Program-made: the position numbers and the translations under genes
Assembly (NCBI GenBank): GCA_002746985.1
Contig: NVXH01000007.1
Span: forward strand, 151,322 to 196,433
From: Porticoccaceae bacterium
GTDB lineage: Bacteria > Pseudomonadota > Gammaproteobacteria > Pseudomonadales > Porticoccaceae
Reading direction: 5' to 3'
DNA: 45,112 nt
The notes under the pieces: generated by a model
Databases searched by the model: none
What the model was told of the DNA's origin: nothing
The model's input: only the letters and a program-made list of their open reading frames with translations
Part shown: positions 3,860 through 38,978 of the stretch, one piece after another
Layout of the letters: every line of letters begins with the position of its first letter
How positions within the stretch are numbered: the first letter of the stretch is position 1

Positions 3860-3954
3860 TTATTAGTCATGTCCAAAGTGAGCAGAGAATATTCATTTTT
3901 CAGTTAAACCATTTGGGTTAAACTACACGGCTTATCCCGCGTAGTTTTGGTCCC

Positions 3955-4605
3955 ATGGATTTATCAACAGTTCGCATTACCGAGATTTTTTACTCCCTTC
4001 AGGGTGAGTCCACGACAGTCGGTTTACCCACCGTATTTGTTCGGCTCACTGGCTGCCCCCTGCGGTGCCAGTATTGTGATACTGAGTATGCATTCTATGG
4101 TGGTGAGCGCCAGAAAATATCTGATGTTGTTACATCAGTTGCCAGTCATAAGCCCCGTGAAGTCTGTGTCACTGGCGGTGAGCCCCTAGCTCAGAAAGCC
4201 TGTATTCCGTTATTAGCAGCACTTTGTGACGAGGGCTACCGAGTGTCTCTGGAAACCTCCGGGGCCTTAAGCGTAGAGCATGTGGACCCTAGGGTAGTAA
4301 AAGTGCTGGATTTGAAAACTCCGGGCTCTGGTGAGGTTGAAAAAAATCTCTATGGCAATATGAAGCATTTAAATATTCGTGATCAGGTGAAATTCGTAAT
4401 TTGTGATCGCCAGGATTATGAGTGGGCAAGAATGAAGATTGACGAGCTAAAATTAACGGAAAGGGTGGGGGATATTCTTTTTTCCCCAAGTACTGGTCAG
4501 TTAGATGCAGCAGAACTGGCTGATTGGATTTTAGAAGATCATTTGCCTGTCAGATTTCAGCTTCAGCTGCATAAGTTATTATGGAACGATGAGCCGGGAC
4601 ATTAA
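3955..4605 (+). CDS. queE: 7-carboxy-7-deazaguanine synthase (radical SAM)
   Basis: 'EIFYSLQGE', CxxxCxxC motif (CPLRCQYC), 'VTGGEPL', 'QLQLHK'. Adjacent to queC. Confidence 0.93.
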   Translation: MDLSTVRITEIFYSLQGESTTVGLPTVFVRLTGCPLRCQYCDTEYAFYGGERQKISDVVTSVASHKPREVCVTGGEPLAQKACIPLLAALCDEGYRVSLETSGALSVEHVDPRVVKVLDLKTPGSGEVEKNLYGNMKHLNIRDQVKFVICDRQDYEWARMKIDELKLTERVGDILFSPSTGQLDAAELADWILEDHLPVRFQLQLHKLLWNDEPGH

Positions 4606-7933: not shown

Positions 7934-9691
7934 ATGAAATTAGCCCAGATTTTACCCTGCATTATTTGGGTGAGGGAATACCGAAGAAGCTACTTCGTTA
8001 GTGATATGATTGCTGCTGCCATTGTAACTATTATGTTGATTCCTCAGTCTCTTGCTTATGCCTTGCTTATAGGTCTACCAGCTCATGTGGGGTTTTATGC
8101 AAGTATTCTACCTTTAATTATTTATGCTGTTTTTGGTTCTAGTAGAACACTATCGGTTGGCCCTGTTGCAGTAGCCTCATTGATGACAGCTTCAGTGATA
8201 CAAGATATTGCCAGTCAGGGTTCTATCGATCATCTCAATGCAGCTATCATTCTTGCATTATTGTCTGGTTTACTTCTTGTATTGTTGGGTATATTTCGTT
8301 TTGGTTTTCTGGCTAATTTTTTGTCTCATCCAGTTGTCTCAGGATTCATTACTGCCTCTGGTATTATTATCGCTTTCAGCCAGTTTAAGCATATTTTGGG
8401 TATAACCGCTAATGGCAATAACCTGCCTGAAATTTTAAGTACCTTATATGAAAATGTTGCTCATACCAATCAGTCAACCCTAATGATTGGGAGCGGGGCA
8501 CTGTTTTTTTTATTCTGGGCACGTAGTGGTTTAAAAAAATTGTTACTCAAACTAAAGGTTGAAAATGCAACGGCTGAACTACTAACAAAAACGGCGCCAG
8601 TTATTGTGGTGGTAGTCACTATTTTTACTGCATTTAGTTTTGATTTGGGCAGTAAGGGTGTTGGGCTTGTAGGTAACATCCCATCAGGTTTGCCGACAAT
8701 ACAATTACCTTCAATAAACAGTGTTCCCTGGATGGATTTATTAGTTCCAGCAATATTGATATCTATTATTGGTTATGTCGAATCTATTTCTGTTGGTAAA
8801 ACTTTAGCCGTTAAAAGGGGACAAAAAATCGATCCAGATCAGGAGTTAATTGGTCTAGGTGCTGCGAATGTTGCCTCTGCTTTATCTGGAGGCTTTCCTG
8901 TTGCAGGTGGATTTTCTCGTTCCGTCGTTAATTTTGATGCTGGAGCAAAAACTCAGGCTGCAGGTTTCTTCGCTGCTATTGGAATAGGTATCGCAGCTCT
9001 AACTCTTACGGGTCTATTGGCATTTCTACCTAAAGCAACGTTAGCTGCTACCATTATTGTTGCTGTACTAAGGTTGGTTGATTTTTCTATTTTGAAGCGT
9101 ACTTGGAAGTATTCCTTGTCAGATTTCATGGCGGTGGCAGCCACTATGGTTTTAACCTTATTTCTTGGTGTTGAAATGGGGGTGCTCTGTGGCGTTACGG
9201 CTTCTATTGCACTACACCTTTATAAAACATCTCGTCCACATATTGCAGAAGTAGGTGAAATAGATGGCACAGAACATTTTCGTAATGTGAAGCGTCATTT
9301 AGTTAACACGCATACAGAGATACTCTCGTTGCGACTAGATGAAAGTTTATATTTTGCCAATGCATCTTTTCTTGAAGATCGAATCTATAAGGAGCTGGCT
9401 CTAAGGAAGGAGTTGAAACATATTATTCTGATGTGTACTGCCATTAATGAAATTGATATTAGTGCACTAGATGTATTGGGGGTAATTAATCAACGGTTGA
9501 CTGAGGTGGGTGTTGGGTTTCATCTCTCAGAAGTGAAAGGCCCTGTTATGGACTCTTTGGAAAAGACTGATTTTATAGCATGCTTGAATGGTCAAATTTT
9601 TCTTTCTCAACATATTGCTGTTACAACTATCCTGGAAAATAAGTTGAACATAGCTCAGGATAATTCTGAATTTAGAGACTATCAGATTTAA
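7934..9691 (+). CDS. SulP/SLC26 family anion transporter with STAS domain
   Basis: 'IPQSLAYALL', 'GSSRTLSVGPVA', 'GGFSRS', many TM segments and a C-terminal STAS domain ('LRLDESLYFANA'). Confidence 0.93.
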   Translation: MKLAQILPCIIWVREYRRSYFVSDMIAAAIVTIMLIPQSLAYALLIGLPAHVGFYASILPLIIYAVFGSSRTLSVGPVAVASLMTASVIQDIASQGSIDHLNAAIILALLSGLLLVLLGIFRFGFLANFLSHPVVSGFITASGIIIAFSQFKHILGITANGNNLPEILSTLYENVAHTNQSTLMIGSGALFFLFWARSGLKKLLLKLKVENATAELLTKTAPVIVVVVTIFTAFSFDLGSKGVGLVGNIPSGLPTIQLPSINSVPWMDLLVPAILISIIGYVESISVGKTLAVKRGQKIDPDQELIGLGAANVASALSGGFPVAGGFSRSVVNFDAGAKTQAAGFFAAIGIGIAALTLTGLLAFLPKATLAATIIVAVLRLVDFSILKRTWKYSLSDFMAVAATMVLTLFLGVEMGVLCGVTASIALHLYKTSRPHIAEVGEIDGTEHFRNVKRHLVNTHTEILSLRLDESLYFANASFLEDRIYKELALRKELKHIILMCTAINEIDISALDVLGVINQRLTEVGVGFHLSEVKGPVMDSLEKTDFIACLNGQIFLSQHIAVTTILENKLNIAQDNSEFRDYQI

Positions 9692-9853
9692 AGTGATGAC
9701 GGTGGGGTTTAGGTCTGCATGTTGTTAATGGCAGAGATGCTCTGTGTGCATTTTTTGTCAAGTAGAAGTAATAGAAATATGATTGTCTATAAATTACTCT
9801 ATTATTTTTGACGGGTGATACAATATAGTTTATTCACGAGGAGTCCCTATTTA

Positions 9854-10759
9854 ATGTTGATTAAGCTCTTAAAACATAAAGTAACTGTTTTCTTTGTATT
9901 GTTTATTTGTATAAATTTTAGTATTGCAGATAACAAAAGTCTTGAATTTCTCTGGGAACTTCATGGGCTTGATAATCCCGAGTCAGTTATTTATGACTCT
10001 AAGTTAAAACATCTTTATGTATCCAATGTTAACGGTCAGCCAAATGATAAAGATGGTAATGGTTATATATCTATTATTTCTTTGGATGGAAAAATAATTA
10101 ATAAAAAATGGATGGTCGGACTCAATGCACCGAAAGGCCTCGCATTGTTTGGTCGCAATCTTTACATTGCTGATATAGACGAGCTTGTTGTTATAGATAT
10201 TGATTATGGCCGTATTGTTAAAAAGTATAAGGTAGATGATGCAAAGTTCCTGAATGATGTTGCTGCTGCACCAAATGGTGATATTTATGTGTCTGATATG
10301 TTAACCAATCGGATTCATCGATTAACAAAAAATACATTTAGTGTTTGGGTTGAATCAGATGATCTTGAATCACCAAATGGTTTGTTTGTCTTGGGTGACG
10401 ACCTGATTGTTGGGGCTTGGGGGGCGATGACGGAGGGGTTTTCCACAGATATTCCTGGGCATTTAAAACGTATTTCAATTCAAGATAAAACAATATCATC
10501 TATTGGGGATGGCTCTCCGATAGGTAATCTTGATGGCGTTGAAGCTGCAGACCAAGAAGGTTTTTATGTCACTGATTGGATGAATGGAAAATTGTTTTAT
10601 ATTTCTAATACAGGTGGAGTGTCAACATTGCTAACCCTTGTTCAGGGTAGTGCTGACCTTGAGTTTATTGTCAAAAAAGGCCTTATATTTATACCGATGA
10701 TGAATGATAATAAAATACTTGCTTATAAGGTTAATGATGGGGGTAGATCGAAAGATTAA
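9854..10759 (+). CDS. Exported SMP-30/gluconolactonase-like beta-propeller protein
   Basis: Signal-like N-terminus, 'PESVIYD', 'GLNAPKGL', 'FLNDV', 'PNGL', 'LDGVE'. GAGGAG precedes ATG 9854. Confidence 0.75.
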   Translation: MLIKLLKHKVTVFFVLFICINFSIADNKSLEFLWELHGLDNPESVIYDSKLKHLYVSNVNGQPNDKDGNGYISIISLDGKIINKKWMVGLNAPKGLALFGRNLYIADIDELVVIDIDYGRIVKKYKVDDAKFLNDVAAAPNGDIYVSDMLTNRIHRLTKNTFSVWVESDDLESPNGLFVLGDDLIVGAWGAMTEGFSTDIPGHLKRISIQDKTISSIGDGSPIGNLDGVEAADQEGFYVTDWMNGKLFYISNTGGVSTLLTLVQGSADLEFIVKKGLIFIPMMNDNKILAYKVNDGGRSKD

Positions 10760-10760
10760 A

Positions 10761-11288
10761 CTAAACCCTTTGTAGCTTATATTTAAACTTAATTAATTTG
10801 TGTGTAAAGCCGGATAATTTGGTCGGTGGATAAAGACAGGTAACACGGAACGTATCCGCGTCTTTATCAAGCCAAAAGTTGTCGGAAAATATATTGACCA
10901 AATTTGTATCTGCTCCCCCTCCTCTCTTCCGAGGTGCTGTTTGGGGGCCGATGCGGCAAGCATAATATTGTGGATCAATGAGTGAGTATCTGGTGGACAT
11001 CAAACTGGGGATGTTTAAAAAAACCTTTCTAGATAATACGAACTTTTTCTTTGACTTTGGTGGTATGGGTTTTTTTTCTCCAATCAAACGAATTAACTGA
11101 GCTTGTTCACTGAATGATAGAGATGTTTTTTGTTGCAGTTCATTAATTAAATCTAAAAATCGCAGAACACTTAAAGCTGCCAATTGCGCTGTAATTGGGT
11201 TGTAGATTTTATAAGGAATATCGCAATGGGCTTCTGCTGTTACAAAATTAACATATTGATGCAGGTTTTCTAAAAACCGATATAGCAT
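10761..11288 (-). CDS. Hypothetical protein, 175 aa
   Basis: Only long ORF in this interval, with AGGAGG 7 nt upstream of the ATG. No family recognised. Confidence 0.6.
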   Translation of the reverse strand: MLYRFLENLHQYVNFVTAEAHCDIPYKIYNPITAQLAALSVLRFLDLINELQQKTSLSFSEQAQLIRLIGEKKPIPPKSKKKFVLSRKVFLNIPSLMSTRYSLIDPQYYACRIGPQTAPRKRGGGADTNLVNIFSDNFWLDKDADTFRVTCLYPPTKLSGFTHKLIKFKYKLQRV

Positions 11289-11364
11289 TACATGGCCTCC
11301 TGTCTTGGTTTTTGTAACAGTTGTTTCAGTTGAAGGCGTCGCGCTTTAGGCCGGCAGTAAAGAC

Positions 11365-11490
11365 CTATGGTGGAGTTAAGAGTATCAATAGTCCGTAGGT
11401 AGTATGGCTGGTATTGTCATGGTCGGGGTTAGCATTAGCACTTATTGCTATAGTCATTAATCAGGTTATGAAAAAGGTACGTTTATTCAT
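11365..11490 (-). pseudogene. Interrupted signal-peptide-bearing ORF remnant directly after fumC (possible orfX-like gene)
   Basis: AGAGGA RBS and ATG 24 bp after the fumC stop. Reads MNKRTFFIT*LMTIAISANANPDHDNTSH...PP* with an in-frame TGA at codon 10. Confidence 0.3.
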
Positions 11491-11514
11491 AGTTAAGTCC
11501 TCTTGTTGTGGCAA

Positions 11515-12894
11515 TTACAGGCCTCCTTGGGTTAGTTTTTCAGGGTCGAGCAGTCGTTCCAGTTCATTGCGGCTCAGGTCGGTATTTTCTTCAGCAACAT
11601 CGATAATTGGTCGGCTTTCGGCGTAGGCTTGTTTGGCAATTTTGGCGGCTTTTTCATAACCGATTATCGGGTTTAAAGCCGTCACTAAAATAGGGTTTCT
11701 GGTGAGCGCCTCTGTCAGGGATTTTTCATTGACAGTAAAGCTGGCAATAGCTTTATCTGCTAATAAAACACTGACATTAGTCAGGATTTCTAAACTAAAA
11801 AGTAAGTTGTGGGCTATCAGCGGTAGCATGACGTTGAGTTCAAAATTGCCTGATTGGCCGGCAATAGTGATTGCTGCGTCGTTTCCAATGACTTGAGCTC
11901 CCGCCATGGCAGCGGCTTCTGGAATGACGGGATTGACCTTGCCGGGCATAATAGAAGAGCCTGGTTGTAGTGCTTGCAGTTCTATTTCACCCAAGCCTGC
12001 CAGTGGGCCGGAGTTCATCCAGCGTAGATCATTGGCAATTTTAATAATGGAAACGGCCGTTGTTTTGAGCTGGCCAGAGAGTGCAACTGCAATATCTTGT
12101 GATCCAATATGAGTAAAAAAGTTATTCGCTGGCCGAAACTTGATTCCTGTCATTGCTGTTAATGCTTTATTGAACGTGTGTTTAAATTCTGGGTGAGCAT
12201 TAATACCGGTGCCGACCGCAGTGCCTCCTTGAGCAAGGCTTTGAATGCTGGGTTGTAGGTCAATAAGTCGATTGATATTTTGATCGATTTGATCGGCCCA
12301 GCTTTCGAGGCTTTGGCTTAAACGTATGGGCATCGCATCCATAAGGTGAGTGCGCCCGGTTTTTATATGATGATGTACGCTGTTGGCTTTATCCCGAATG
12401 CTATTGGCGAGATGTCGTAAAGCAGGAATCAACTGTTTATCCAATGCCAGGGCAGCACTGACATGAATAGTCGTAGGGATAACATCATTACTGCTTTGCC
12501 CGCAATTGACGTGGTCATTGGCATCAACTTTGTCACCATATAAAGTGCTGGCCAGGTTAGCCAATACCTCATTGGCATTCATATTAGAGCTGGTACCAGA
12601 GCCGGTTTGGAAGACATCTACCGGAAAGTGTGACATCAGTAATGGGTCTTCCTGTAAGTTGGCCGCTGCCTGTTGAATGGCTTCGCCCATTTTTTCGGGG
12701 ATTTGTTCCAAGGTGGCATTGGCGTTTGCAGCAGCCGATTTTACGAGTAAGAGCGCACGGATAAACGATTCAGGCATATGTAATCCACTTACTGGAAAAT
12801 TATTGATTGCTCGTTGTGTTTGGGCGGCGTATAGCGCATCAGCCGCAACTTCTAGGCTGCCCATACTGTCCTGTTCAGTTCGAGTGTTTTTCAT
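11515..12894 (-). CDS. fumC: Class II fumarate hydratase
   Basis: 'RTEQDSMG', 'QTGSGTSSNMN', 'GRTHLMDA', signature GSSIMPGKVNP, 'GNFELN'. Confidence 0.96.
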   Translation of the reverse strand: MKNTRTEQDSMGSLEVAADALYAAQTQRAINNFPVSGLHMPESFIRALLLVKSAAANANATLEQIPEKMGEAIQQAAANLQEDPLLMSHFPVDVFQTGSGTSSNMNANEVLANLASTLYGDKVDANDHVNCGQSSNDVIPTTIHVSAALALDKQLIPALRHLANSIRDKANSVHHHIKTGRTHLMDAMPIRLSQSLESWADQIDQNINRLIDLQPSIQSLAQGGTAVGTGINAHPEFKHTFNKALTAMTGIKFRPANNFFTHIGSQDIAVALSGQLKTTAVSIIKIANDLRWMNSGPLAGLGEIELQALQPGSSIMPGKVNPVIPEAAAMAGAQVIGNDAAITIAGQSGNFELNVMLPLIAHNLLFSLEILTNVSVLLADKAIASFTVNEKSLTEALTRNPILVTALNPIIGYEKAAKIAKQAYAESRPIIDVAEENTDLSRNELERLLDPEKLTQGGL

Positions 12895-12984
12895 AGTGTT
12901 AGCCTTAACAAATATTGTTTTAGTGTGGTGCTTTTTATCTTCTATCTTCTATCTTCTAAATTCGTAATTAAGCCAAGTAAGAAA

Positions 12985-13359
12985 TTAAGTCAAAAGCCCT
13001 GGTTGTAAGTAGTGGCTAGTCACTCGAAGCTCATGTATTAGTGAAAGAACCTACTGTTTACTCTGTTTGCATTCGGCCACGCACTGAAGTGAAAGTAATG
13101 GTATATAGATATGATCTAAACACTGACAGCGCCAGTGTGGTGGTAGGCATTCGTCGGCAAGAGTGTCCAGAAGTAACAGAAATTGTGCTAATAGATGTGC
13201 GCGGTGGACTGCTTTGGTATTTTGATTTGTGGATGGAGGCAGGTCTAAAAATTGACGGATAAGGCCGGGATTGTCGGGTTCTTCCACATTCCTGATTTTT
13301 TGGCGCAAACTCAGGTAAGTAGAGAAAGTGGTTGATGTGTTTATATTTAAACTGTTCAT
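12985..13359 (-). pseudogene. fagA: FagA-like protein interrupted by an in-frame TAG at 13051-13053
   Basis: 'EPDNPGLI' and 'LLLDTLADECLPPHWRCQCLDHIYIPL' match my recollection of the FagA family. It sits upstream of fumC with a Fur box. The frame continues 21 codons past the TAG (VLSLIHELRVTSHYLQPGLLT) to TAA at 12985. Confidence 0.65.
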
Positions 13360-13385
13360 AGTACGAGTATAGATCTTTATTAGAT

Positions 13386-13404
13386 GATATTGATTATCAT
13401 TTCG
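13386..13404. promoter_or_regulatory. Fur box upstream of fagA-fumC
   Basis: GATATTGATTATCATTTCG matches GATAATGATTATCATTATC at 15/19 positions and lies 26 bp upstream of the fagA ATG. Confidence 0.75.
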
Positions 13405-13585
13405 ATCTTTGAAGTTGTAAAGATAAAGATTTAAATTGATTGGTGGGGTGTCCCGGTGAAAGCAGGTACGTTTAATGATCTACGTTGTAGTATTGCCGGG
13501 CATGCTGAGGCCGGGATGACGGGAGTGGTTATTATTAAATAAAGGGGCTTATTATTGAGGGTGACAGCTTTAGGCTTGCCCTTTA

Positions 13586-14449
13586 TTATTTTTTCTTTTG
13601 GCGCTCAAAAAAATCCAGGGTTTTTTGGCGATTGACCAAATAATTGTACGTACTGATGTGGGGCCCGCGAGTTTTTACGTATTCAATATTCTCTCTGGTA
13701 TTACTTTGAAACTGGCTAATCAACTGTTCGGTGTGGTGGTTTGGAATTATTTGATCTGTAGAGCTACTGTAAATCAGTAAGGGCAGGTCTGGCCATTCAG
13801 ATACTGCTTTATCAGGGCTAAAGCGATTATCTATTATCCAAGATAATGGGTGTTGTAATGGTCGAGTGAGCCAGAATTCAGAGAGCTTTTCACGACCAAT
13901 ATGTCGGTAGTTAGCAAACGGCGCGTCAAGAATCACACCTTTAAGCCTCTCAATTTTGTTATGGGATAAATAATAGGCGCTAAGACTTGCTCCTATACTC
14001 TGACCTAACCAATAGGCTGGTAATTGTTGAGACTGGCTGCGGAGGTTAAGCCAGTGTGCGCCTGCATCGAGGTCTTGCAGTATGTCAGGCAGTGATGGCC
14101 GCCCTTGAGAGCGTCCATAACCACGATAATCAAGTAAGAGTAGTTCATAACCAGCTTCGGAAAGCCAGGCAACGCTATGGATATGTGTGCTGATATTCTC
14201 AGCATTGCCGTGTAAAACAAGCACGATGCCTTTTGCTGGTGTTTTTGGCAGTAGATGCCATGCATGTAACTGTGTGCCATCTTTGGCTCTAAGGTTTATA
14301 TCGTGGTAATTAATGCCTATTTTATCGGGTGTGAGCCGTATGTGTTGGTCTGGATAGAAGAAGGGTCTGCTGCAGGCAGTTAAGGTTATGGCAAGCATGA
14401 GAAGTATGGGCCAGCGCAGTGGCTTAAATACTGTTATTAAAAGCGCCAT
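13586..14449 (-). CDS. Lipoprotein alpha/beta hydrolase
   Basis: Lipobox LTAC, 'LHGNAENI', 'DYRGYG', nucleophile GQSIG, then Asp (DQII) and His (GPHI). Its start overlaps the DUF4105 gene stop by 13 bp. Confidence 0.85.
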   Translation of the reverse strand: MALLITVFKPLRWPILLMLAITLTACSRPFFYPDQHIRLTPDKIGINYHDINLRAKDGTQLHAWHLLPKTPAKGIVLVLHGNAENISTHIHSVAWLSEAGYELLLLDYRGYGRSQGRPSLPDILQDLDAGAHWLNLRSQSQQLPAYWLGQSIGASLSAYYLSHNKIERLKGVILDAPFANYRHIGREKLSEFWLTRPLQHPLSWIIDNRFSPDKAVSEWPDLPLLIYSSSTDQIIPNHHTEQLISQFQSNTRENIEYVKTRGPHISTYNYLVNRQKTLDFFERQKKK

Positions 14450-16326
14450 TCGATTCCTAACTGATATTCATGAAAATACTCACCTTCCGTGTGGCTTACC
14501 TGAGTGCTTCCAGTAAGAGATAGATTGGATTGTAGGTGATAGCTCAGCTGCCATGACAGTTCGTCGTAGTAGTGATTGTAGCCCGCAACACTGTCTGTAT
14601 GGATCAGGGCTAGGTGGTGCTGCCAATTGTTTTTGCGTGTGAGCCAGCCCACATGAAGGCCAAGATTGGCAGAATAGTTAGATGGCATTCGATGTTGATG
14701 TTGGTATTGAACCTCAAGCAGGGCGTATAGCTGCTGGTTTCCTATGTTGTAACTGTGTCCTGCCCCTATGTTCAGTGTACCGGTGAGAGGGTCGTCTGTT
14801 TTAGAAAGGTGTTTTCGATACAGCCCTGCATCTATTCGCCAGGATATAGGTTTAAAGAAATCGTTCCGCGGCGTAAGGGAGGTAATGTTCAGTCCGGTAA
14901 AGCTGGAAACTCTTAGGGTTCCTGTTTCACGGTAATCAATGGCCGTTTCCAGGAACTTGATTTGAGCACCATCGGGATAACCAGCACTGGGGTCAAGAAG
15001 GTCATGATACGCGGGCCTCAGTGTTAGGCGAGTCGTTTGTTTATGGTTGACATTGCCCTGGCTAATTGAGATTTCAAAGGTTTTATGTCCCTCGTCGTCT
15101 CGTACCAGGGGTTTGGGTGCAGGCGGGAAGGGGGAGTCAGGAGGTAGCTGGCTGCGTTGCTTTAGTAATGCCAGGGAGTATTCAGCAGCATGTTGGCGGG
15201 GTACTTCTTGTTGTTGAGCTTGATAGCGAAGATGGTCAAAGGCTACTTCGAGAACAGCTGCTTGTTCCTCGATGGAGTAGTTTTTAAGTTCTAATTTTGT
15301 TGTTTCAGAGTCTGATTTTGCTGTAGCTAGGGTTAGTTTATGTAGGTGCTTGGGTAGCATGTTAATTTTATGTTCGAGCTGGGTTGCCATAGAGGGACGA
15401 TACAAAATTTCACCAATAAGATCACTCGTATTCATTGATCTTAATGTGTCAGAGGGAATGGCATAGGTATGAAATTTATCAGTTAAATGCAATGAGGGGC
15501 GTGCGACATCCAGGAGCGTAAGAATACGGTAGGCACAGTTTTCATCAAAAAAGTAATAGTCAAAGTAGTTAGGTAGTAACTCCCAAGTATGAAGCAGCAG
15601 TCGTTCTATCTCTTCATCGGTAAAGTTAAGTTTATATTCCCAGATGTCTCTGTTCTCAATTTCACTGTATTCCTTGGCTTTCTGATAATAAGGTTTAACT
15701 GTAATCACGCCGGGATACCCGCCAAACAAGCCTCGAAAAGCATAGATAAGCTCAGGATCTTCGTGGTTAACATTGGCCGCAAAATTAATGGTTTGGGCCA
15801 GAAGTCGGTTGTTATTGCTTTGGCCATGTTGGTTAACACGTAAAAAAGTATGGCCAAACATAGATGAAGGGCTATTAAGGTAGGCTGCTGGAAAAATCAA
15901 ACTGATACTTTCAGCATTAAACTGTTGTAACCACTGATGTAAGTCTGGACAGTTATCAGGGGTGATATCTAATTTATCCAGTAAGCCCTGTTGATGCAGC
16001 CACTGGGCACGTGCGGGAAAACGACACTGTAAAGAGCGGGTTTGTGAAAGCTGTTCAATGCTGGCTCTTAATTCAGCCTTTGGATCATGCTTCCCCTTTT
16101 TTGATAAGAAAAAGTCGGGGGAGTCAACTTCTGACTGAAGTCGGTTATTCCAATCACTGCGGCGAAACTGTAATAAATTTAGCCATTGTTGCTGGGTCTC
16201 AACGTTGTCAGTGGAAAGGGGTGTTTGATTTGAAGCGAGTGTTACTGAGGACGTAAGTATCAGTAACAAAAAGACTGCAATGCAGGGTTGTGTCACTGAG
16301 CAGGCAGTGGACATAGAGTTATTCAT
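14437..16326 (-). CDS. DUF4105 (Lnb N-terminal-like) domain outer-membrane protein
   Basis: Signal peptide, 'QCRFPAR', 'SPSSMFGHTFLR', 'YYFFDENCAY', 'LRPAYHDLLDP'. The C-terminus has alternating beta-strands ending in WRF. Confidence 0.8.
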   Translation of the reverse strand: MNNSMSTACSVTQPCIAVFLLLILTSSVTLASNQTPLSTDNVETQQQWLNLLQFRRSDWNNRLQSEVDSPDFFLSKKGKHDPKAELRASIEQLSQTRSLQCRFPARAQWLHQQGLLDKLDITPDNCPDLHQWLQQFNAESISLIFPAAYLNSPSSMFGHTFLRVNQHGQSNNNRLLAQTINFAANVNHEDPELIYAFRGLFGGYPGVITVKPYYQKAKEYSEIENRDIWEYKLNFTDEEIERLLLHTWELLPNYFDYYFFDENCAYRILTLLDVARPSLHLTDKFHTYAIPSDTLRSMNTSDLIGEILYRPSMATQLEHKINMLPKHLHKLTLATAKSDSETTKLELKNYSIEEQAAVLEVAFDHLRYQAQQQEVPRQHAAEYSLALLKQRSQLPPDSPFPPAPKPLVRDDEGHKTFEISISQGNVNHKQTTRLTLRPAYHDLLDPSAGYPDGAQIKFLETAIDYRETGTLRVSSFTGLNITSLTPRNDFFKPISWRIDAGLYRKHLSKTDDPLTGTLNIGAGHSYNIGNQQLYALLEVQYQHQHRMPSNYSANLGLHVGWLTRKNNWQHHLALIHTDSVAGYNHYYDELSWQLSYHLQSNLSLTGSTQVSHTEGEYFHEYQLGIEWRF

Positions 16327-31782: not shown

Positions 31783-33246
31783 TTACAGGATATAGGTTAA
31801 GGTCAATTGAGTCAGCAGGCTGATAAGCAGAATTCCAGTAAGGTTGAGCCAAAAGCCAGCCTTGGCCATTTCTGGAATCGAAATCAGATTAGAGCTAAAT
31901 ACAATGGCATTGGGTGGCGTTGCTACCGGCAGCATAAAGGCACAGCTGGCCGCAATGGTGGCGGGAAGAATAATAGCCAGGGGATTAATTCCCAAACCTT
32001 CTGCCATCACTGCAAAAATGGGGATCAGCGCAGTGGTTGTGGCGGTATTGCTTGTGAGCTCAGTAAGAAAAATAATCAAACTAACCACCATTAGGGTCAT
32101 CACCAGTGGTGGTACCCCCTGCAAAATACTTAATTGGTTGGCTAGTAATTCACCCACGCCGTTGGCGCGAATAGCTCCAGCCAATGCCAGGCCGCCACCA
32201 AACAAAATCAAAACGCCCCAGGGCACCTTAAGGGCTGTGTCCCAATCCATCAAAAATTCCCGTTGTTTCAGATTAACCGGAATACTGAACAGCAGTAGCG
32301 CCGCAATAATGGCGATACCCGTATCACTTAGCCGGGAAAGTGGAGGCCATTCTATTAATAGCGGACGGCAAATCCAGCAGGCAGCGGTCAGCAGAAAAAT
32401 CGTCAGGGTTAATTTTGCGCCCATAGTCCAGGGTTCTGGTTTCTCATCGAGAAAAGAGCGGTCAATGGCCTCATCTCCCGGTGGATAAATCCATTGGGTT
32501 AGCATCCACCAAACCAGGGGTACAAATAACACCACAATAGGCAAGCCAATGGTCATCCACTTGGCAAAACTAATATCTATATCCAGTTCATTCTGAATAA
32601 AAGATACCGTAAACATATTGGGAACAGTGCCAATAATGGTGCCAATACCACCGATGGATGCCGCATAAGCAACCCCCAGTAGCAGGCAGAGGCTAAAGTT
32701 TTTACGATGAGGTGAATCTTTATCCAGCAGGCTGATAATACTCAGTAAAATTGGCAGCATCACCAACGTTGTTGCCGTATTGGTAATCCACATACTGAGT
32801 GTGGCGGCGACAAACATAAAACCACCCACCAGCGTGGCAGGTTTGGTGCCAATGAGCTTCAATACTCTAATGGCGAATCGACGATGTAGATGCCACCTCT
32901 CCAATGCCAGGGCGAGAATAAAACCACCAAGGAACAGAAAAATCAGAGGGTGAGCATAAGCACTGGCAGTTTCCTTAATAGTGCTGGCACCTGTTAGTGG
33001 CATTAGCGCCAGCGGTAATAATGCTGTGGCATAAATAGAAGTAGCTTCGGTCAGCCACCAGAGCGCCATCCAGGCAGCCATACCTGCGGTAGCTCGACCA
33101 GCAGTGCCAAGTACTATCTCTTCACCATTTAGTCCCGCCGCACGTTCAGGTACTAGTGAGTAAACCAATATTGCCAGTAAAGGCCCGGCTAATAGAGCTA
33201 GTTGACGAAATAGATGAATACCTTGGTGTAGTGGAGATGGCTGCAT
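31783..33246 (-). CDS. DASS/SLC13 family sodium:dicarboxylate/sulfate symporter
   Basis: 'SMWITNTAT', 'GIGTIIGTVPN', 'WGVLILFGGG', 'ELTSNTA', 'AFMLPVATPPNAI'. Confidence 0.92.
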   Translation of the reverse strand: MQPSPLHQGIHLFRQLALLAGPLLAILVYSLVPERAAGLNGEEIVLGTAGRATAGMAAWMALWWLTEATSIYATALLPLALMPLTGASTIKETASAYAHPLIFLFLGGFILALALERWHLHRRFAIRVLKLIGTKPATLVGGFMFVAATLSMWITNTATTLVMLPILLSIISLLDKDSPHRKNFSLCLLLGVAYAASIGGIGTIIGTVPNMFTVSFIQNELDIDISFAKWMTIGLPIVVLFVPLVWWMLTQWIYPPGDEAIDRSFLDEKPEPWTMGAKLTLTIFLLTAACWICRPLLIEWPPLSRLSDTGIAIIAALLLFSIPVNLKQREFLMDWDTALKVPWGVLILFGGGLALAGAIRANGVGELLANQLSILQGVPPLVMTLMVVSLIIFLTELTSNTATTTALIPIFAVMAEGLGINPLAIILPATIAASCAFMLPVATPPNAIVFSSNLISIPEMAKAGFWLNLTGILLISLLTQLTLTYIL

Positions 33247-33663: not shown

Positions 33664-33670
33664 GTTAGCT
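33664..33670 (+). other. Candidate integron core site (GTTAGCT), possibly an attI remnant, upstream of the DUF2130 gene
   Basis: GTT core 39 bp before the ATG. It is the exact reverse complement of AGCTAAC at the left end of attC1. No attC-like palindrome lies upstream of it. Confidence 0.3.
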
Positions 33671-33709
33671 GTCACTCAGAAAAATTGCAAAAGTAGAGGG
33701 TAAATAGCC

Positions 33710-35119
33710 ATGCACGAAATCATCTGTCCCCACTGTAAGAAAGCATTCAAGATTGACGAAGCTGGGTATGCAGACATTCTGAAACAGGTTCACGATAGCG
33801 AGTTTGAGCAGCAGTTGCACGAAAGGCTTGAGTTGGCCGAGAAAGATAAGACAAATGCTGTTGAGCTTGCCAAGGAAAAAGCTGGCAGCGAAATGCAGAA
33901 GGCAGCAGCAGCCAAGGACACTGAAATTCAAGATTTGAAGGCAAAATTAGAGGTTGGTGAGGTTACGCAGCAACTTGCTGTGACCGAGGCCCTGAAAGTC
34001 GTTGAAAAGGAACGCGACGAATTCGCCAACGAACTAAAACAGGCCAAGCAAGATAACGAAACCGCTTCGGAGCTAGCTAAGGCAAATCACTCAAACCAAC
34101 TACAAGAGACCTCTGCTAAAAAGAATGCAGAGATTCAAGAATTAAAGGCAAATCTCAGCGCTAACGAAATTGCGCAGAAGCATGCAATCACCGACGCGGT
34201 CAATGAAGCTGAGAAGGGGCGGGATCAACTGGAAAGTGACCTTGAACGAGTTACGCTAGAGAAGCAGCTCGCTGAGACGTCGCTCAAAGATAAGTACGAG
34301 ACGCAGATCAAGGATCGAGATGACGAGATTGAGCGCCTCCGGGATATGAAGGCCCGTCTGTCGACCAAGATGGTTGGAGAGACCCTTGAACAACACTGCG
34401 AAACTGAGTTCAACCTTATTCGAGCAACTGCGTTCCCCAAAGCATATTTTGAAAAAGATAATGACGCGCGAACTGGTAGCAAGGGCGACTACATCTTTCG
34501 CGACTCAGATGAGTTGGACACTGAGATCGTGTCGATCATGTTCGAAATGAAGAACGAGAATGATGAAACAGCGACTAAGAAGAAAAATGAAGATTTTCTT
34601 AAAGAGCTCGACAAGGATCGCATTGAAAAGCAGTGTGAATACGCGATCCTCGTATCTCTTCTTGAGCCTGATAGCGAGCTTTACAACTCAGGCATTGTCG
34701 ATGTGTCCCACCGTTACCAAAAAATGTATGTCATTCGACCACAATTTTTTATTCCGATAATTACATTGTTGCGAAACGCTGCCCAAAACTCACTCAAATA
34801 CAAAACTGAGCTAGCTATAGTAAAAGCACAGAACGTTGATGTCACAAATTTTGAGAGCGAGCTTGATGCGTTTAGGACAGGTTTTGCTCGGAACTACGAG
34901 CTAGCATCCAAGAAGTTTAAAACAGCTATTCAGGAGATCGACAAAACTATCGACCATCTTCAGAAGACCAAGGATGCGCTGCTTGGTTCTGAAAACAATC
35001 TTCGACTTGCTAACAACAAAGCCGACGACCTAACCGTCAAGAAATTAACCAAAAAAAATCCCACAATGGCAGCGAAATTCGCTGGGCTCAAGAACGATGA
35101 TAGTTCCGGTTCTACATGA
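33710..35119 (+). CDS. DUF2130 domain-containing coiled-coil protein
   Basis: 'MHEIICPHC', long coiled-coil, '[11 protein letters not shown]', 'GSKGDYIF', 'IMFEMKNE', '[14 protein letters not shown]'. Confidence 0.85.
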
Positions 35120-35149
35120 ATTGTGCTTTACCACTATTGAGCACACGCG

Positions 35150-35196
35150 TTAAAGGGGTTGTAACGATTATTAAATATTCAATCTGACCCCTTTAA
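35150..35196 (+). repeat. 47-bp imperfect palindromic repeat, copy 1
   Basis: TTAAAGGGGTTGTAACGATTATTAAATATTCAATCTGACCCCTTTAA. The perfect IR extends to 13 bp (35147-35159 / 35187-35199). Confidence 0.95.
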
Positions 35197-35363
35197 CGCT
35201 TATTACAGTTACTCAAGTTGTATTTTTAGTCAACGGTGTAAACTTTGCTCGTATATGGGAGGTTACAGAATACAAAGAGTTTTTTATCCCGCTGGCATTG
35301 TTTATATACTCCATGGATCTGTTTGCATACATGAAACGAGCACGGTCGCCCGAAAAAAGCTAA
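35196..35363 (+). pseudogene. 5'-truncated cassette gene (membrane-protein C-terminus)
   Basis: Open frame TLITVTQVVFLVNGVNFARIWEVTEYKEFFIPLALFIYSMDLFAYMKRARSPEKS* begins at the repeat edge with no usable start. Its TAA is inside the AGCTAAC box of attC1. Confidence 0.6.
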
Positions 35364-35444
35364 CAAATACATGCACTCGGACAGCAAAAAGCACCGCTTG
35401 TACCTCGCTCTACTTTTTACTGCCGGTGATGCTAGACGTTATGT
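35358..35444 (+). mobile_element. attC site 1 (87 bp)
   Basis: AGCTAAC...GTTATGT. Inner stem CAT(G)CAC(T)CGG/CCGGTGATG with two extrahelical bases, then CAGCAAAAAG/CTTTTTACTG. Confidence 0.85.
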
Positions 35445-35469
35445 GGATCTAAACCGAATTTTTTCTGTA

Positions 35470-35586
35470 ATGGGAAGGTCAAAAAAAGTTGTACCTGACC
35501 CTACTTATTTCTTACTTGAGGCTACAAAATTTCAAAAGCTAGACGTTAGATTTTGTCCTTGTTGCGGGGGCAACGTTGAAATATAA
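35470..35586 (+). CDS. 38-aa ORF of a mini cassette
   Basis: MGRSKKVVPDPTYFLLEATKFQKLDVRFCPCCGGNVEI*. The stop lies in the ATATAAC box of attC2. Confidence 0.4.
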   Translation: MGRSKKVVPDPTYFLLEATKFQKLDVRFCPCCGGNVEI

Positions 35587-35652
35587 CAAGGTGTTGTTAG
35601 CCACTTCGTGGCTGGGGCAGCCTACGCGTTGCCCCAAACCACGGCGTTAAAT
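35581..35652 (+). mobile_element. attC site 2 (72 bp)
   Basis: ATATAAC...GTTAAAT, with internal hairpins AGCCAC/GTGGCT and GGGGCA/TGCCCC. Confidence 0.75.
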
Positions 35653-35665
35653 ATATAGGTACGAA

Positions 35666-36046
35666 ATGGAATATTTTCTATTAGCAATAATTGCTCTATG
35701 TCCTCTTGTTGTAGCAGGACTATTTTCGGCATTATCAAAGAGCTCTATTGACTCAAAATTTGAGTTCATTTTAATCGTATTGTCTTGTTACGGTATCTAT
35801 TACATGACATTAGTGGTTTATGGCCATTTGGAGAAAATTTTCGAAAACTATATGTATTTAAACTGTGGTTATACAGGTGAACAGCTTTCCCCCTGTAGTG
35901 AAGTTCTATATCTATTAGATAAATTTGTTGCCAATTGGCTCTTTGTCATCAGTGTGCTCTTGTCTATTAGTTTACAAATTTATCTGCTCTACAGTATTCA
36001 GAAGCGTAATATATTTAACAAGTCAAAGCAGTCAGGGACAAGCTAA
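35666..36046 (+). CDS. Cassette-encoded hypothetical membrane protein, 126 aa
   Basis: Three hydrophobic segments. Starts 13 bp after the attC2 core and runs into attC3. No family recognised. Confidence 0.7.
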   Translation: MEYFLLAIIALCPLVVAGLFSALSKSSIDSKFEFILIVLSCYGIYYMTLVVYGHLEKIFENYMYLNCGYTGEQLSPCSEVLYLLDKFVANWLFVISVLLSISLQIYLLYSIQKRNIFNKSKQSGTS

Positions 36047-36073
36047 CGCTTTCCCCTGTTTGAGGCGTTATGT
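36013..36073 (+). mobile_element. attC site 3 (61 bp)
   Basis: ATTTAAC...GTTATGT with stem TCAAA(G)CAG/CTGTTTGA. ATTTAAC is the exact complement of the preceding core GTTAAAT. Confidence 0.85.
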
Positions 36074-36148
36074 GGATCTAAATCGAGGTTTTTTTGAAGA
36101 AATGTGATGTAATTGGAATAATCTTAAAGAATTACCCAGACACAATAA

Positions 36149-36634
36149 ATGGTTTCTATGCAGTCTTTTAGTACTCAATTTATCTTATCTCGAGATTACC
36201 TTGCTGAGTGTTTTGATCAGTCTTTACCCTATAGAAAAAATGCCAAGCTCAATTATCTATTTCCTGCATTATTGTTTGCTGCTGGTGCGGGATTACTGAT
36301 TTTTACTGAGCAAGCTAAGGTCGTAGGTAGTATTTTAATCGCGTTGGCTGTGCTGGAGCTGATTCATATTCGATTTCGACGAGCTTGGTGGTTAACACGG
36401 CAGATGTGGGGGAAAAGTTCTGGCGGTGAGGTAAAATTAACCATAGATGAAAATGGGATCCAAACACAGAACGCCTATACGCAAACAACGCTATTGTGGG
36501 CAGATGTTGAGCGCGTTATAGAAACCGATTTAGGGCTTATTCTGGTGGCTAAAGCTGGAGGTCAGCAGTACCTGTCTAAATCGTTATTTTCTGTTGAGTT
36601 GATAAGCAAGATTGTTGCGAGGAATAAGGATTAA
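36149..36634 (+). CDS. YcxB-like family membrane protein (cassette gene)
   Basis: Two TM helices, then 'LTIDENGI...LLWADVERVIETDLGLIL...QYLSKSLF'. Confidence 0.72.
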   Translation: MVSMQSFSTQFILSRDYLAECFDQSLPYRKNAKLNYLFPALLFAAGAGLLIFTEQAKVVGSILIALAVLELIHIRFRRAWWLTRQMWGKSSGGEVKLTIDENGIQTQNAYTQTTLLWADVERVIETDLGLILVAKAGGQQYLSKSLFSVELISKIVARNKD

Positions 36635-36685
36635 CATTCACTTCAATAAAAATTGAAATCGCTCCTATAATGCAGCTAATACAGT

Positions 36686-36692
36686 ACATAAC
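36686..36692 (+). mobile_element. Left box only (ACATAAC) of a truncated attC site 4
   Basis: Exact complement of the GTTATGT that opens this cassette (36067-36073). Repeat copy 2 begins 4 bp later in place of the rest of the attC. Confidence 0.6.
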
Positions 36693-36696
36693 TGAA

Positions 36697-36744
36697 TTAA
36701 ATGGGGTCGTAACGATTATTAAATATTCAATCTGACCCCTTTAA
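36697..36744 (+). repeat. 47-bp repeat family, copy 2 (48 bp)
   Basis: TTAAATGGGGTCGTAACGATTATTAAATATTCAATCTGACCCCTTTAA (one inserted T). Confidence 0.95.
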
Positions 36745-36773: not shown

Positions 36774-37232
36774 ATGAACGTCACTATAAACGGATATGTC
36801 AGCTATATCTGCAAAAGTTGTAGTAAAGCATACATGGTCGAAAGCCAATCTTTAACTTTTGTAGAAGATACCAGCCCAGAGGCTGAGGACTATAATTATA
36901 TTTGCTACGTCTCTCAAGTTAGCGAAGCCTGCACCTCTTGCGAAAATGATGTGCATATTAAAATTGAAATATGGGAATACCCCGAAGCGGCTATTAACTA
37001 CTCATATTCCGCCATAGAAGGCGCTATCGATATAGAATGCGAGTTTTGTATCGAACACTATTTCGACGAAGCAGCCGCCAAGGAAGAAGACACCGAACAT
37101 GACCCAGAACCCGCCAAAAATACTAAAACCGAGGATGAAAGTAAAAGTACCTATAACTATAACGAAGACACAGCGCGACTCCATGAACCGTCTACCGCTG
37201 AACGCTATATAGATATGTATGACGATGAATAG
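36774..37232 (+). CDS. Hypothetical acidic protein with two CxxC motifs, 152 aa
   Basis: CKSC and CTSC, 'IWEYPEA', D/E-rich tail. Fills the space between repeat copies 2 and 3. Confidence 0.7.
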   Translation: MNVTINGYVSYICKSCSKAYMVESQSLTFVEDTSPEAEDYNYICYVSQVSEACTSCENDVHIKIEIWEYPEAAINYSYSAIEGAIDIECEFCIEHYFDEAAAKEEDTEHDPEPAKNTKTEDESKSTYNYNEDTARLHEPSTAERYIDMYDDE

Positions 37233-37237
37233 AGTAA

Positions 37238-37284
37238 TTAAAGGGGTCGTAACGATTATTAAATATTCAATCTGATCCCTTTAA
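37238..37284 (+). repeat. 47-bp repeat family, copy 3
   Basis: TTAAAGGGGTCGTAACGATTATTAAATATTCAATCTGATCCCTTTAA (one substitution in the right arm). Confidence 0.95.
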
Positions 37285-37409
37285 CGAATTTCTGTATAAA
37301 AGAGCGCATTCCTGTCACTTATCCTTATGTAGGTGTGTAATCACCGGGTTTAAGCTGCTAATCAGAGTGCGCTTTGATAAGATGCGCCCATTTTAAGTCG
37401 GAAATCCCC

Positions 37410-38978
37410 ATGTTTAGTTTGATCGTTAGCAAAGAATCCAATGTAAAGAATGATTTACTCTCTGGATTGACCGTTGCTTTGGCATTAGTGCCGGAGGCGG
37501 TAGCCTTTGCTTTTGTGGCTGGGGTTGCGCCCATGGTGGGGATGTATGCAGCCTTTATGATGGGTTTGGTTGCTGCTGTATTCGGTGGTCGCCCTGGTAT
37601 GATTTCAGGTGCCACTGGTGCTATGGCCGTTGTGGTAGTTGCTTTGGTGGCTAGTCACGGAGTGCAATATCTATTTGCCGCTGTGCTATTGGCTGGCGTG
37701 TTTCAAATTCTGTTCGGTGTGTTTCATCTGGGAAAATTTATTCGTTTGGTTCCCTACCCTGTGATGTTGGGCTTTGTTAATGGTTTGGCCATCGTTATTT
37801 TTCTGGCCCAGCTTGATCAATTTAAAGTGCCTGATGCTTCGGGTGTGCTTACATGGATGATGGGTGGCGAGCTGTACTTGATGTTGGGCCTGGTAATTTT
37901 AACCATGGCGATTATCCAGTATTTGCCCCGATTAACCACGGCTGTGCCTGCGTCTCTGGTCGCTATTATTATGGTGACGTTGATGGTTCATGGCCTTGAT
38001 ATTGATACTCGAACCGTTATTGATTTTGTTCGGGGTATGTTGCCAGTAGATCAGCAGGCATCGGCAAGTCTTGAAGGTGAGCTGCCAAGCTTTGCGATAC
38101 CGATGGTGCCGTTCACGTTAGAGACATTACGTGTTATCGGGCCCTATGCCATCATTTTGGCATTGGTCGGCCTGATCGAGTCGCTTTTAACCCTGTCATT
38201 GATTGATGATCTTACTAATACCCGTGGGCGAGGAAATCGTGAATGTATTGGCCAGGGGTTGGGGAATACCATTAATGGATTCTTCGGTGGTATGGGCGGT
38301 TGTGCCATGATTGGCCAGAGTATGATCAATATTAATTCTGGTGGGCGGGGACGTTTATCGGGAATTACGGCAGCATTAGTTTTGCTGGCTTGTATTCTTT
38401 TTGTGTCTGACCTGATTGAAATGATTCCCCTGGCGGTATTAGTGGGTGTCATGTTTATGGTGGTGTTGGGCACCTTTGAGTGGGCTTCGTTTCGAATTTT
38501 TCGTGCTATGCAGCGCAGTGATGCGTTTATCTCCATATTGGTTGCTGCTGTTACCGTGTTTACTGATCTGGCTATTGCAGTAATTGTTGGTGTGATTGTT
38601 TCTGCACTGGTGTTTGCATGGCAGCATGCCAAGCATATTTCTGTTTCTACCTATACGGATGAAGATGGCTGGAAAGTTTACGAACTGGATGGCCCCATAT
38701 TTTTTGGGTCAGTTAGCAACTTTAAAGAGTTATTCTCTCCTGAGACGGACCCTGATGATGTAGTGATCGAATTTAAAAATGCACGGGTATCAGACTCCTC
38801 TGCCATTGAAGCACTACATGGGTTAGCTCATAAGTATAAAAAATGCGGCAAAAAACTACACCTTCGCCACCTAAGTCAGGATTGTTTACAGTTGTTAGAT
38901 GATGCCGCTCGTTATGTGGAAATAAACATCAATGAAGACCCACGTTATAAAGTGGCAACTGATGCATATGATGACTAA
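37410..38978 (+). CDS. SulP/SLC26 family anion transporter (second, different subfamily)
   Basis: '[19 protein letters not shown]', '[13 protein letters not shown]', '[12 protein letters not shown]', STAS domain ('GPIFFGS'). ATG 37410 preferred. Confidence 0.92.

Follow-up and report, generated by a model that had tools for sequence, protein, structure and literature searches.

Layout of the citT–sulP array

The 45,112-nt stretch of DNA analysed here (the window) covers positions 151322-196433 of contig C5 (NVXH01000007.1) in the 2.6-Mb, 15-contig assembly of a Porticoccaceae bacterium (GCA_002746985.1), and holds an array of integron gene cassettes, between a citT-like transporter gene and sulP, in which three copies of a 47-bp hairpin repeat all sit at cassette junctions. 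We describe how cassettes of this array break off at the repeat, trace the repeat to the ends of Y1 transposase elements and weigh how the cuts arose, the reading we favour being trimming in place by recombination associated with the repeat. The three copies are in direct orientation and differ at one or two bases, with none expected by chance, and only on the right side of copy 1 is a gene cut. Named genomes that match the end of the repeat exactly put the assembly in Porticoccus (Porticoccaceae). The assembly contains numerous masked bases and at least one duplicated segment; the layout of the locus is the same in five independent metagenome assemblies (99.6-100% identity, no indels) and is thus not an assembly artefact. 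The features are, from left to right:

31783-33246, minus strand: citT-like transporter gene, left neighbour of the array.
33664-33666, plus strand: G|TT junction, apparently attI-like or a secondary site, where the citT-side backbone stops and variable cassette DNA starts.
33665-35149, plus strand: DUF2130 gene cassette, first of the array (open reading frame, ORF, 33710-35119; PF09903, E 8e-90).
35150-35196, plus strand: 47-bp hairpin repeat copy 1, left edge GCG|TTAAAGG (fold -14 kcal/mol, z -5.6).
35196-35363, plus strand: 3' remnant (55 codons and stop) of a gene for a ~355-aa multi-pass membrane protein.
35358-35444, plus strand: attC1 (R'' AGCTAAC ... R' GTTATGT), recognised by its bottom-strand fold, a model match and the attCs of relatives.
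35439-35652, plus strand: ORF-less cassette 2, containing a second-type hairpin repeat (35459-35509) and attC2 (35581-35652).
35666-36046, plus strand: cassette 3 ORF, a 126-aa membrane protein of unassigned family (no match in Pfam).
36041-36073, plus strand: attC3, a 33-bp 'mini-attC' (R'' AGCTAAC, 19 nt, R' GTTATGT) whose central hairpin is lost.
36149-36634, plus strand: cassette 4 ORF, YcxB-like, 161 aa (PF14317; homologous cassettes L046 and L055).
36686-36692, plus strand: R'' box ACATAAC, sole surviving piece of attC4, where homology to L046 and L055 ends.
36697-36744, plus strand: 47-bp hairpin repeat copy 2, with one extra T in its left arm.
36774-37232, plus strand: 152-aa Cys-rich acidic ORF, alone between copies 2 and 3 and without an attC.
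37238-37284, plus strand: 47-bp hairpin repeat copy 3, ~35 nt ahead of the conserved sulP upstream region.
37374-38978: sulP gene, right neighbour of the array.

Copy 1 starts 6 nt past the end of the DUF2130-cassette homology, at GCG|TTAAAGG, and copy 3 starts 5 nt past the stop codon of the 152-aa gene. Copy 1, the remnant and attC1 together have G|TT at both bounds (35149|35150 and 35438|35439), which would formally leave them a unit that IntI could still move. The 152-aa ORF has just five cluster-level homologues, and its homology to locus L053 spans from ~17 nt upstream of the ATG to the stop codon. An Rfam scan of the region from 33 to 38 kb returned nothing relevant.

Cassette sites without a local integrase

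The attC sites were identified with a model built exclusively from attCs of other loci, a weak one with four base pairs that gave the sites of the window E-values of 0.03-0.18. On the plus strand of the 45-kb window it matched 35578-35655 (attC2, E 0.03, for which folding was also computed), as well as 36010-36076 and 35355-35447 (E 0.18 each), with only one further, marginal match. Moreover, attCs with 82-85% identity to attC1 lie after unrelated genes in G025, G004 and G014, three other genomes, and the bottom strand of attC1 takes the form of a long hairpin with bulges. Similarity and predicted structure indicate that attC1, attC2 and attC3 are genuine attCs. An attC is made of R'' (RYYYAAC) followed by R' (GTTRRRY) around an imperfect palindrome with extrahelical bases; attC4 has the R'' box only, and in the 47-bp repeat the polarity is reversed (GTTAAAG ... 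CTTTAAC) and the 11-bp stem is perfect.

The window thus contains at least two close, co-oriented attC sites, and no intI lies nearby: a search with TIGR02249 found on C5 only XerC/D-like matches below the cut-off, ~100 kb off. Elsewhere in the genome intI occurs three times: intact on C15 (188439-189386), interrupted by a stop codon on C8 and, as a truncated fragment, on C11.

A cassette hotspot between citT and sulP

The citT–sulP gap also carries attC-bearing cassettes, different from those of the window, in three congeners (G017, G003 and G014), and all of these begin at one conserved G|TT junction, which corresponds to 33664|33665 of the window. The citT-side backbone GCCAAAGTGATATA...TTTTGAATAAGCTG is kept in G014, G003 and G017 and divergence sets in exactly past the G (CTG|TTAGCTG in the window, CTG|TTATGCG in G014), as is characteristic of an integron-type insertion into a secondary or attI-like site. 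Since different attC cassettes start at a single G|TT junction in three congeners, the gap is a cassette-insertion hotspot in Porticoccus, and the array was put together there by integron-type recombination. The part of the window from 33665 to ~37320 is a decayed integrase-less cassette array (a cluster of attC sites that has no integron integrase, CALIN) at this genus-conserved hotspot.

The gene next to the junction is itself a cassette. The DUF2130 protein is 85-95% identical at the aa level across phyla (Methyloprofundus, Mariprofundus, Scalindua, Flavobacteriaceae and others), and the 5' boundary of its gene, G|TTAGC(C/T)GTCACTCAG, recurs in five independent contexts, in one of which a tyrosine recombinase gene of SAM_4 + Phage_integrase architecture lies divergently at ~210 bp; homology at the 3' end of the cassette stops at 35143. 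On this comparison DUF2130 is a travelling cassette. The first-pass annotation had held that the slice between copies 1 and 2 was not assembled here by IntI. Given a native cassette platform in three congeners with the same G|TT start, a travelling cassette immediately to the left of copy 1, and attC1-attC3 as ordinary cassette junctions within the slice, that view is unsupported.

The neighbours of DUF2130 in other contexts (L060, L062, L102-L104) are defence-type genes (OLD-family nuclease, SIR2-HerA, PIN domains) or an integrase, and its conserved 3' untranslated region (UTR) is a small hairpin of GTT...AAC polarity. In two other organisms DUF2130 is directly followed, in the place that copy 1 has here, by related hairpins ('AATTAAAGGGGTCG'), and copy 1 may, to judge by this resemblance, belong to the DUF2130 module.

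Cassettes cut at the repeats

The frame to the right of copy 1 (35196-35363) starts abruptly at the repeat, has no usable start codon and runs into attC1, as the first-pass annotation had described. Among 1.84 billion representative proteins, its 55-aa product gave 146 matches, in nearly all of which it aligned at about residues 300-350 of proteins 340-400 aa long, and when 300 genomes of the order were searched in six frames, one of them (G081) proved to have a 368-aa multi-pass membrane ORF with a C-terminus 63% identical. Because it aligns solely to the C-termini of such far longer proteins, the 55-codon frame is the 3' remnant of a ~355-aa membrane family, ~300 codons having been lost, rather than a complete small gene with a non-canonical start, the alternative originally kept in mind. 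Removal of copy 1 and rejoining at TTAA restores no ORF, again as described: the sequence, read directly, has a TGA in frame at 35138-35140.

At the other end of the slice attC4 breaks off 4 bp past ACATAAC (36686-36692), with TGAA and then copy 2, also in agreement with the earlier description. YcxB cassettes are present in metagenomes from JGI, with aa identities of 87% (L046/L056) and 81% (L055), and have the entire 3' UTR in common with the window up to ACATAAC; beyond that box L046/L056 and L055 have attC-like DNA, extending 41 and ~75 bp to a GTTA R' box, and no repeat. Intact homologous cassettes therefore do not already hold the repeat at this position, which had been the other way to explain the cut. 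Both ends of the attC-bearing slice are accordingly breakpoints outside attCs that coincide with repeat copies, as had been claimed, and they lie 0-4 nt from the repeat edges.

In the textbook cassette model, similarity between related cassettes extends over the complete attC as far as the G|TT crossover. The homologies of YcxB (36686-36692 against L046 and L055) and of DUF2130 (35135-35143 against L102 and L104) diverge abruptly after an R''-like box, and the point just past R'' looks, from these alignments, like a recurrent breakpoint. A YcxB homologue with the same conserved leader lies in ordinary chromosomal context without an attC at L057/L058 (1501-1977), and could be the source gene of the cassette or a cassette that is minus its site.

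Origin of the repeat from Y1 transposase element ends

The first 23 nt of the repeat (TTAAAGGGGTCGTAACGATTATT) and its last 11 nt are the inverted ends of ~0.8-kb elements on C10 (44743-45540 and 88202-88971), between which lie broken Y1 transposase genes. The genome holds ~20 further solo ends and short derivatives (~28 ends in 2.6 Mb). In the genome of a Dasania phycosphaerae isolate (L070), the exact 23-mer occurs in inverted orientation around an intact gene for a 230-aa Y1 transposase that matches PF01797 with 50 bits (cut-off 23) and NF047646, REP-associated tyrosine transposase (RAYT; REP, repetitive extragenic palindrome), with 61 bits, below the 80-bit cut-off; its HUH motif and catalytic tyrosine region were read by eye in the translation. 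A whole-genome PF01797 search did not detect the C10 copies because their genes are broken, and the family is assigned via the intact Dasania copy. The 47-bp form is therefore a miniature non-coding derivative of an element of the IS200/RAYT superfamily.

Several properties place it beside miniature inverted-repeat transposable elements (MITEs): it is 47 bp long and non-coding, has 11-bp perfect inverted ends identical to those of longer elements, and is present in multiple copies. The flanking TTAA lies inside the palindrome, there is no correlated flank variation among 31 copies and no empty site came to light; a duplicated TA or TTAA target was considered and is inseparable from the palindrome. 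As in REP/REPIN–RAYT systems (REPIN, paired inverted REPs), the repeats flank a RAYT-type gene in inverted orientation, degraded on C10 and intact in L070; copy number is low, neither a GTAG nor a CGTC tag is present, and the 47-bp form is restricted to arrays. That form was found in none of 120 other genomes of the family nor in 185,579 species genomes; the JGI metagenomes in which the intact YcxB array occurs have 28 copies of it, spread over 24 contigs.

End copies on C12 and C13 were discarded as elements, lying as they do within a ~6-kb segment with housekeeping genes (purH, purD, dusB) that is present twice at 99% identity (C12:~9600-15680 and C13:~94900-100960) and is probably assembly redundancy, not a biological duplication. 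An end copy on C8 was likewise set aside, being merely a 250-bp remnant.

Repeat copies and cassette arrays

Every one of the genome's eight full-length copies is in one of three cassette loci or, in one case, at a further site with an R'-like box. Cassette loci take up well below 1% of the genome, as estimated from a few such loci of some kb each in 2.6 Mb. Apart from the three in the window, three copies and a masked fourth lie on C15, in an island of small ORFs with attC sites between a tRNA gene and selO, and one on C11 at the far end of an array behind a truncated intI; another C11 copy has the R'-like box just downstream. The C11 array (C11:48754-53816; L016 2790-7816) consists of the truncated intI (94-aa N-terminus) and then about five cassettes, and ends with the 47-bp copy just ahead of hflX, where the 13-nt right end of the repeat is tandemly duplicated, a rearrangement scar.

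The attC model matched 9 of the 24 repeat-bearing metagenome contigs. Repeat and attCs were co-oriented in 10 of 11 loci, and a TAAC box lay within 40 nt to the left of 10 of 31 non-redundant copies, compared with 15% at control positions; these enrichment statistics are based on short metagenome contigs. Two copies in the genome lie 3-4 nt past an R'' box (ACATAAC-TGAA in the window, TCTAAC-CAA on C15) and several others just before or just after an R' box.

We considered whether this distribution could be coincidental, ordinary deletions having decayed the array while hairpins accumulated in non-essential intergenic DNA as REP-like elements or terminators. Decay free of repeats is indeed present (the 33-bp attC3 and the ORF-less cassette 2) and many metagenome copies are not beside attC boxes; however, the copies were not flagged by a terminator scan, and the recombined copies described below join in rearrangement. 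Pure coincidence is unlikely because both slice cuts fall within 0-4 nt of repeat edges and all eight genomic copies are confined to or lie beside cassette loci, and of all the readings weighed here we give this one the least credence.

The structure of the repeat raises a second possibility, that the hairpin is itself a recombination site, either an attC stand-in for IntI or the mark of a second kind of cassette for a Y1 enzyme. Its stem ends GTTAAAG / CTTTAAC resemble the R-box consensus, copy 1 and L090b start exactly at a G|TTAAA junction, and a C15 copy lies between TCTAAC and GTTAAGA boxes, forming a 70-bp whole that folds with both stems; single ORFs also lie between copies at cassette-like spacing in the window, on C15 and in L065. 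Nonetheless, the polarity is inverted relative to attC (GTT 5', AAC 3'), the stem is perfect and without extrahelical bases, flanking R boxes are absent at most copies, right-hand junctions are not G|TT, and a site-specific system would not sever a gene at codon ~300. We regard this possibility as quite improbable. A bolder version, in which the hairpin is a working site and repeat–gene–repeat units are a second, integrase-independent kind of cassette that replaces attCs, through Y1 'peel and paste' or recombination of hairpin copies, we hold to be a shade more doubtful still; in a weaker form, hairpins with an R'' box on one side and an R' box on the other, of which C15 has an example, may be intermediate stages when attCs are made or renewed.

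Further schemes were rejected. Simple insertion into an attC does not account for the copies, as the joined flanks of copy 2...copy 3 and those of the metagenome copy L075 fold no better than shuffled sequence; copy 2 is not an insertion in attC4 with the remainder displaced, for the DNA after copy 2 or copy 3 has no R' box or complementary arm; and the repeat is not a micro-cassette made by IntI, its right-hand junctions not being G|TT.

Recombination between repeat copies

A 77-nt relative of the element, with the same ends, forms arrays in two loci of Porticoccus metagenome-assembled genomes (L065 and L067), its copies being in direct orientation and 600-1100 bp apart with one ORF between neighbours and pieces of attC alongside. 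Collinearity between the two, at 94% identity, is broken only by 577 bp that L065 has in addition (3949-4525), consisting of a GNAT acetyltransferase cassette between direct 32-nt copies of the element's end; L067 has a single hybrid copy of that end at the indel. Such an arrangement is what recombination between two copies leaves behind when it removes or inserts a one-gene module. The repeat-bounded indel shows that recombination from repeat to repeat adds modules or takes them out.

The same indel may equally be an insertion, and delivery by a composite transposon has to be considered, in which two copies would have picked up part of a larger array, and the repeat–slice–repeat unit would have been carried here by a Y1 transposase supplied in trans. 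A slice between direct hairpin copies has the geometry of IS200/IS605 ends, one-gene repeat-bounded units recur in the window and on C15, and a small ORF lies between related hairpins in another organism too. On the other side, the citT–sulP locus already has cassettes in congeners, the slice is oriented like the neighbouring DUF2130 cassette, and both the slice and the 152-aa module are single-copy in the genome, with no second copy of any module. Furthermore, no empty site was found and a target duplication would be indistinguishable from the palindrome ends; the 47-bp form is in no other species genome among the 185,579 searched, and this genome yielded no intact transposase with such ends. 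Integron mobilization units are recognised by a segment present at two or more places or by a flanking target duplication, and the segment here is single-copy and invariant in the five assemblies. Delivery is, in our judgement, unlikely. The first-pass annotation had left open whether the slice was delivered by the repeats or trimmed at them; trimming fits the evidence.

The reading we favour, at a probability of roughly 0.55, is that a CALIN has decayed in place through trimming by repeat-associated recombination. A family of strand-specific hairpin elements would settle preferentially in arrays, in cassette orientation and at or next to attC positions. Direct copies would then recombine, or the element would be associated with adjacent deletions, so that intervening DNA is removed or swapped and the resulting junctions ignore cassette boundaries. 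At this locus copy 1 would have come to lie at the 3' end of the DUF2130 cassette, a rightward deletion from it taking ~0.9 kb of the next cassette; copy 2 would stand in place of all of attC4 beyond the R'' box, and copy 3 would occupy the attC position behind the 152-aa gene. With copies at varied positions within and between cassettes, DNA could start mid-gene at one copy and end just inside an attC at the next. We infer that the process that left its trace between L065 and L067 also made these particular cuts, and did so at this locus.

Several points weigh against this reading. Numerous metagenome copies have no attC box nearby, so that array targeting is a tendency and not a rule, and joining the flanks of copies rebuilds no foldable attC. 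No close relative with an uncut array was found, and the deletions themselves are unobserved at the locus. The structure is invariant in the five metagenome samples, with no sign of current activity, and both parent-type elements in the genome are degraded, their HUH region broken. Finally, the presence of related hairpins behind DUF2130 in two further organisms could be a sign that the hairpin moves along with genes instead of inserting beside them.

Relation to known systems

Integron arrays are usually considered to be reshuffled solely by the integrase at attCs, with insertion sequences (ISs) as occasional disruptors. In one marine genus, a tiny hairpin derived from a Y1 transposon colonises arrays at attC positions and marks junctions that ignore cassette boundaries. 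If general, this would mean that cassettes can also be deleted, stranded and perhaps re-inserted by another route, driven by homology or by Y1 recombination, and would account for some of the 'orphan' cassettes and attC-less genes of CALINs. The case is also a tractable test of functional kinship between hairpin transposon ends and attCs.

Elements that target attCs include the IS1111-attC group and group IIC-attC introns, which code for an enzyme of their own (DEDD transposase and reverse transcriptase, respectively), insert at a precise attC position and leave both attC halves intact. The repeat resembles them in its enrichment in arrays, its fixed orientation to cassettes and its location at or in attCs, but it is non-coding, its position relative to the R boxes is variable and the remainder of the attC is usually gone. 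MITE-flanked integron mobilization units, such as the class 1 integrons between two MITE copies in Enterobacter and Acinetobacter, have 288-439-bp MITEs of DDE origin and target duplications, and comprise a whole integron including intI. The window likewise has two direct copies of a miniature element around integron DNA, which suggests mobilisation in trans; here, in contrast, neither a duplication nor a second copy can be demonstrated, and the bracketing copies interrupt cassettes.

ISs have been reported near 38% of CALINs and have been proposed to cause their rearrangement (Cury et al. 2016, PMC4889954). The array of the window matches such CALINs in its co-oriented attCs, the lack of an adjacent intI, an IntI elsewhere in the genome and transposable elements in or beside the array (PMC4889954). 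It differs in that the element is a 47-bp non-coding hairpin and not an IS, that it replaces attCs, and that the array begins at a genus-conserved G|TT. Short palindromes inverted around a Y1 HUH gene that matches the RAYT model recall REP/REPIN and RAYT (TnpA-REP) systems (PMC8266576, PMC3733652), from which the present case departs in having eight copies and ~20 solo ends, no GTAG/CGTC tag and a location in arrays, not genome-wide between genes. Insertion at non-att 'attG' sites (bioRxiv 10.1101/2022.09.11.507474) would explain attC cassettes at the citT GTT site without a local integrase, but not the repeat-bounded truncations.

CALINs disrupted by ISs (PMC4889954), attC-targeting elements, integrons flanked by MITEs and the insertion of cassettes at GTT sites other than att are already known. 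In the literature we found no description of a hairpin derived from Y1/RAYT ends that colonises arrays and replaces attCs, and a text search for attC together with RAYT returned merely a passing structural analogy.

Other cassette clusters and small sites

With the attC alignment, nhmmer was too insensitive for the attCs of the window; it did bring up several more small groups of attCs elsewhere in the genome. An attC scanner written for the analysis (TAAC...GTTA with constrained folding) was dropped, as it gave more matches on the reversed sequence and missed attC1 and attC2. Weak attC-like matches lie elsewhere at C5:144231-146915, C7:139499-140101, C9:74020-82199, C10:50115-50188 and C11:207388-207458, several of them near copies of the 23-nt end of the element, which suggests that the genome has many small integrase-less cassette clusters.

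Mini-attC sites like attC3 recur (36041-36073, L046 3343-3386, L095 and L053 506-527), with a gap of just 8-27 nt between R'' and R', as if the central hairpin had been deleted. Cassettes 2 and 4 have a common leader of ~34 nt directly past the G|TT boundary (35434-35467 and 36063-36096). Two independent ENA assemblies (L045 and L052) break at 36068 and 36084, L045 starting exactly at TTATGT, which hints at cassette-level polymorphism or an assembly-graph branch in the attC3 region. The second-type hairpin repeat (GGTCAAAAAAAGTTGTACCTGACCC) within ORF-less cassette 2 (35459-35509) is found again on C9 and C7 of the genome, and upstream of sulP in two relatives (G012 and G014).

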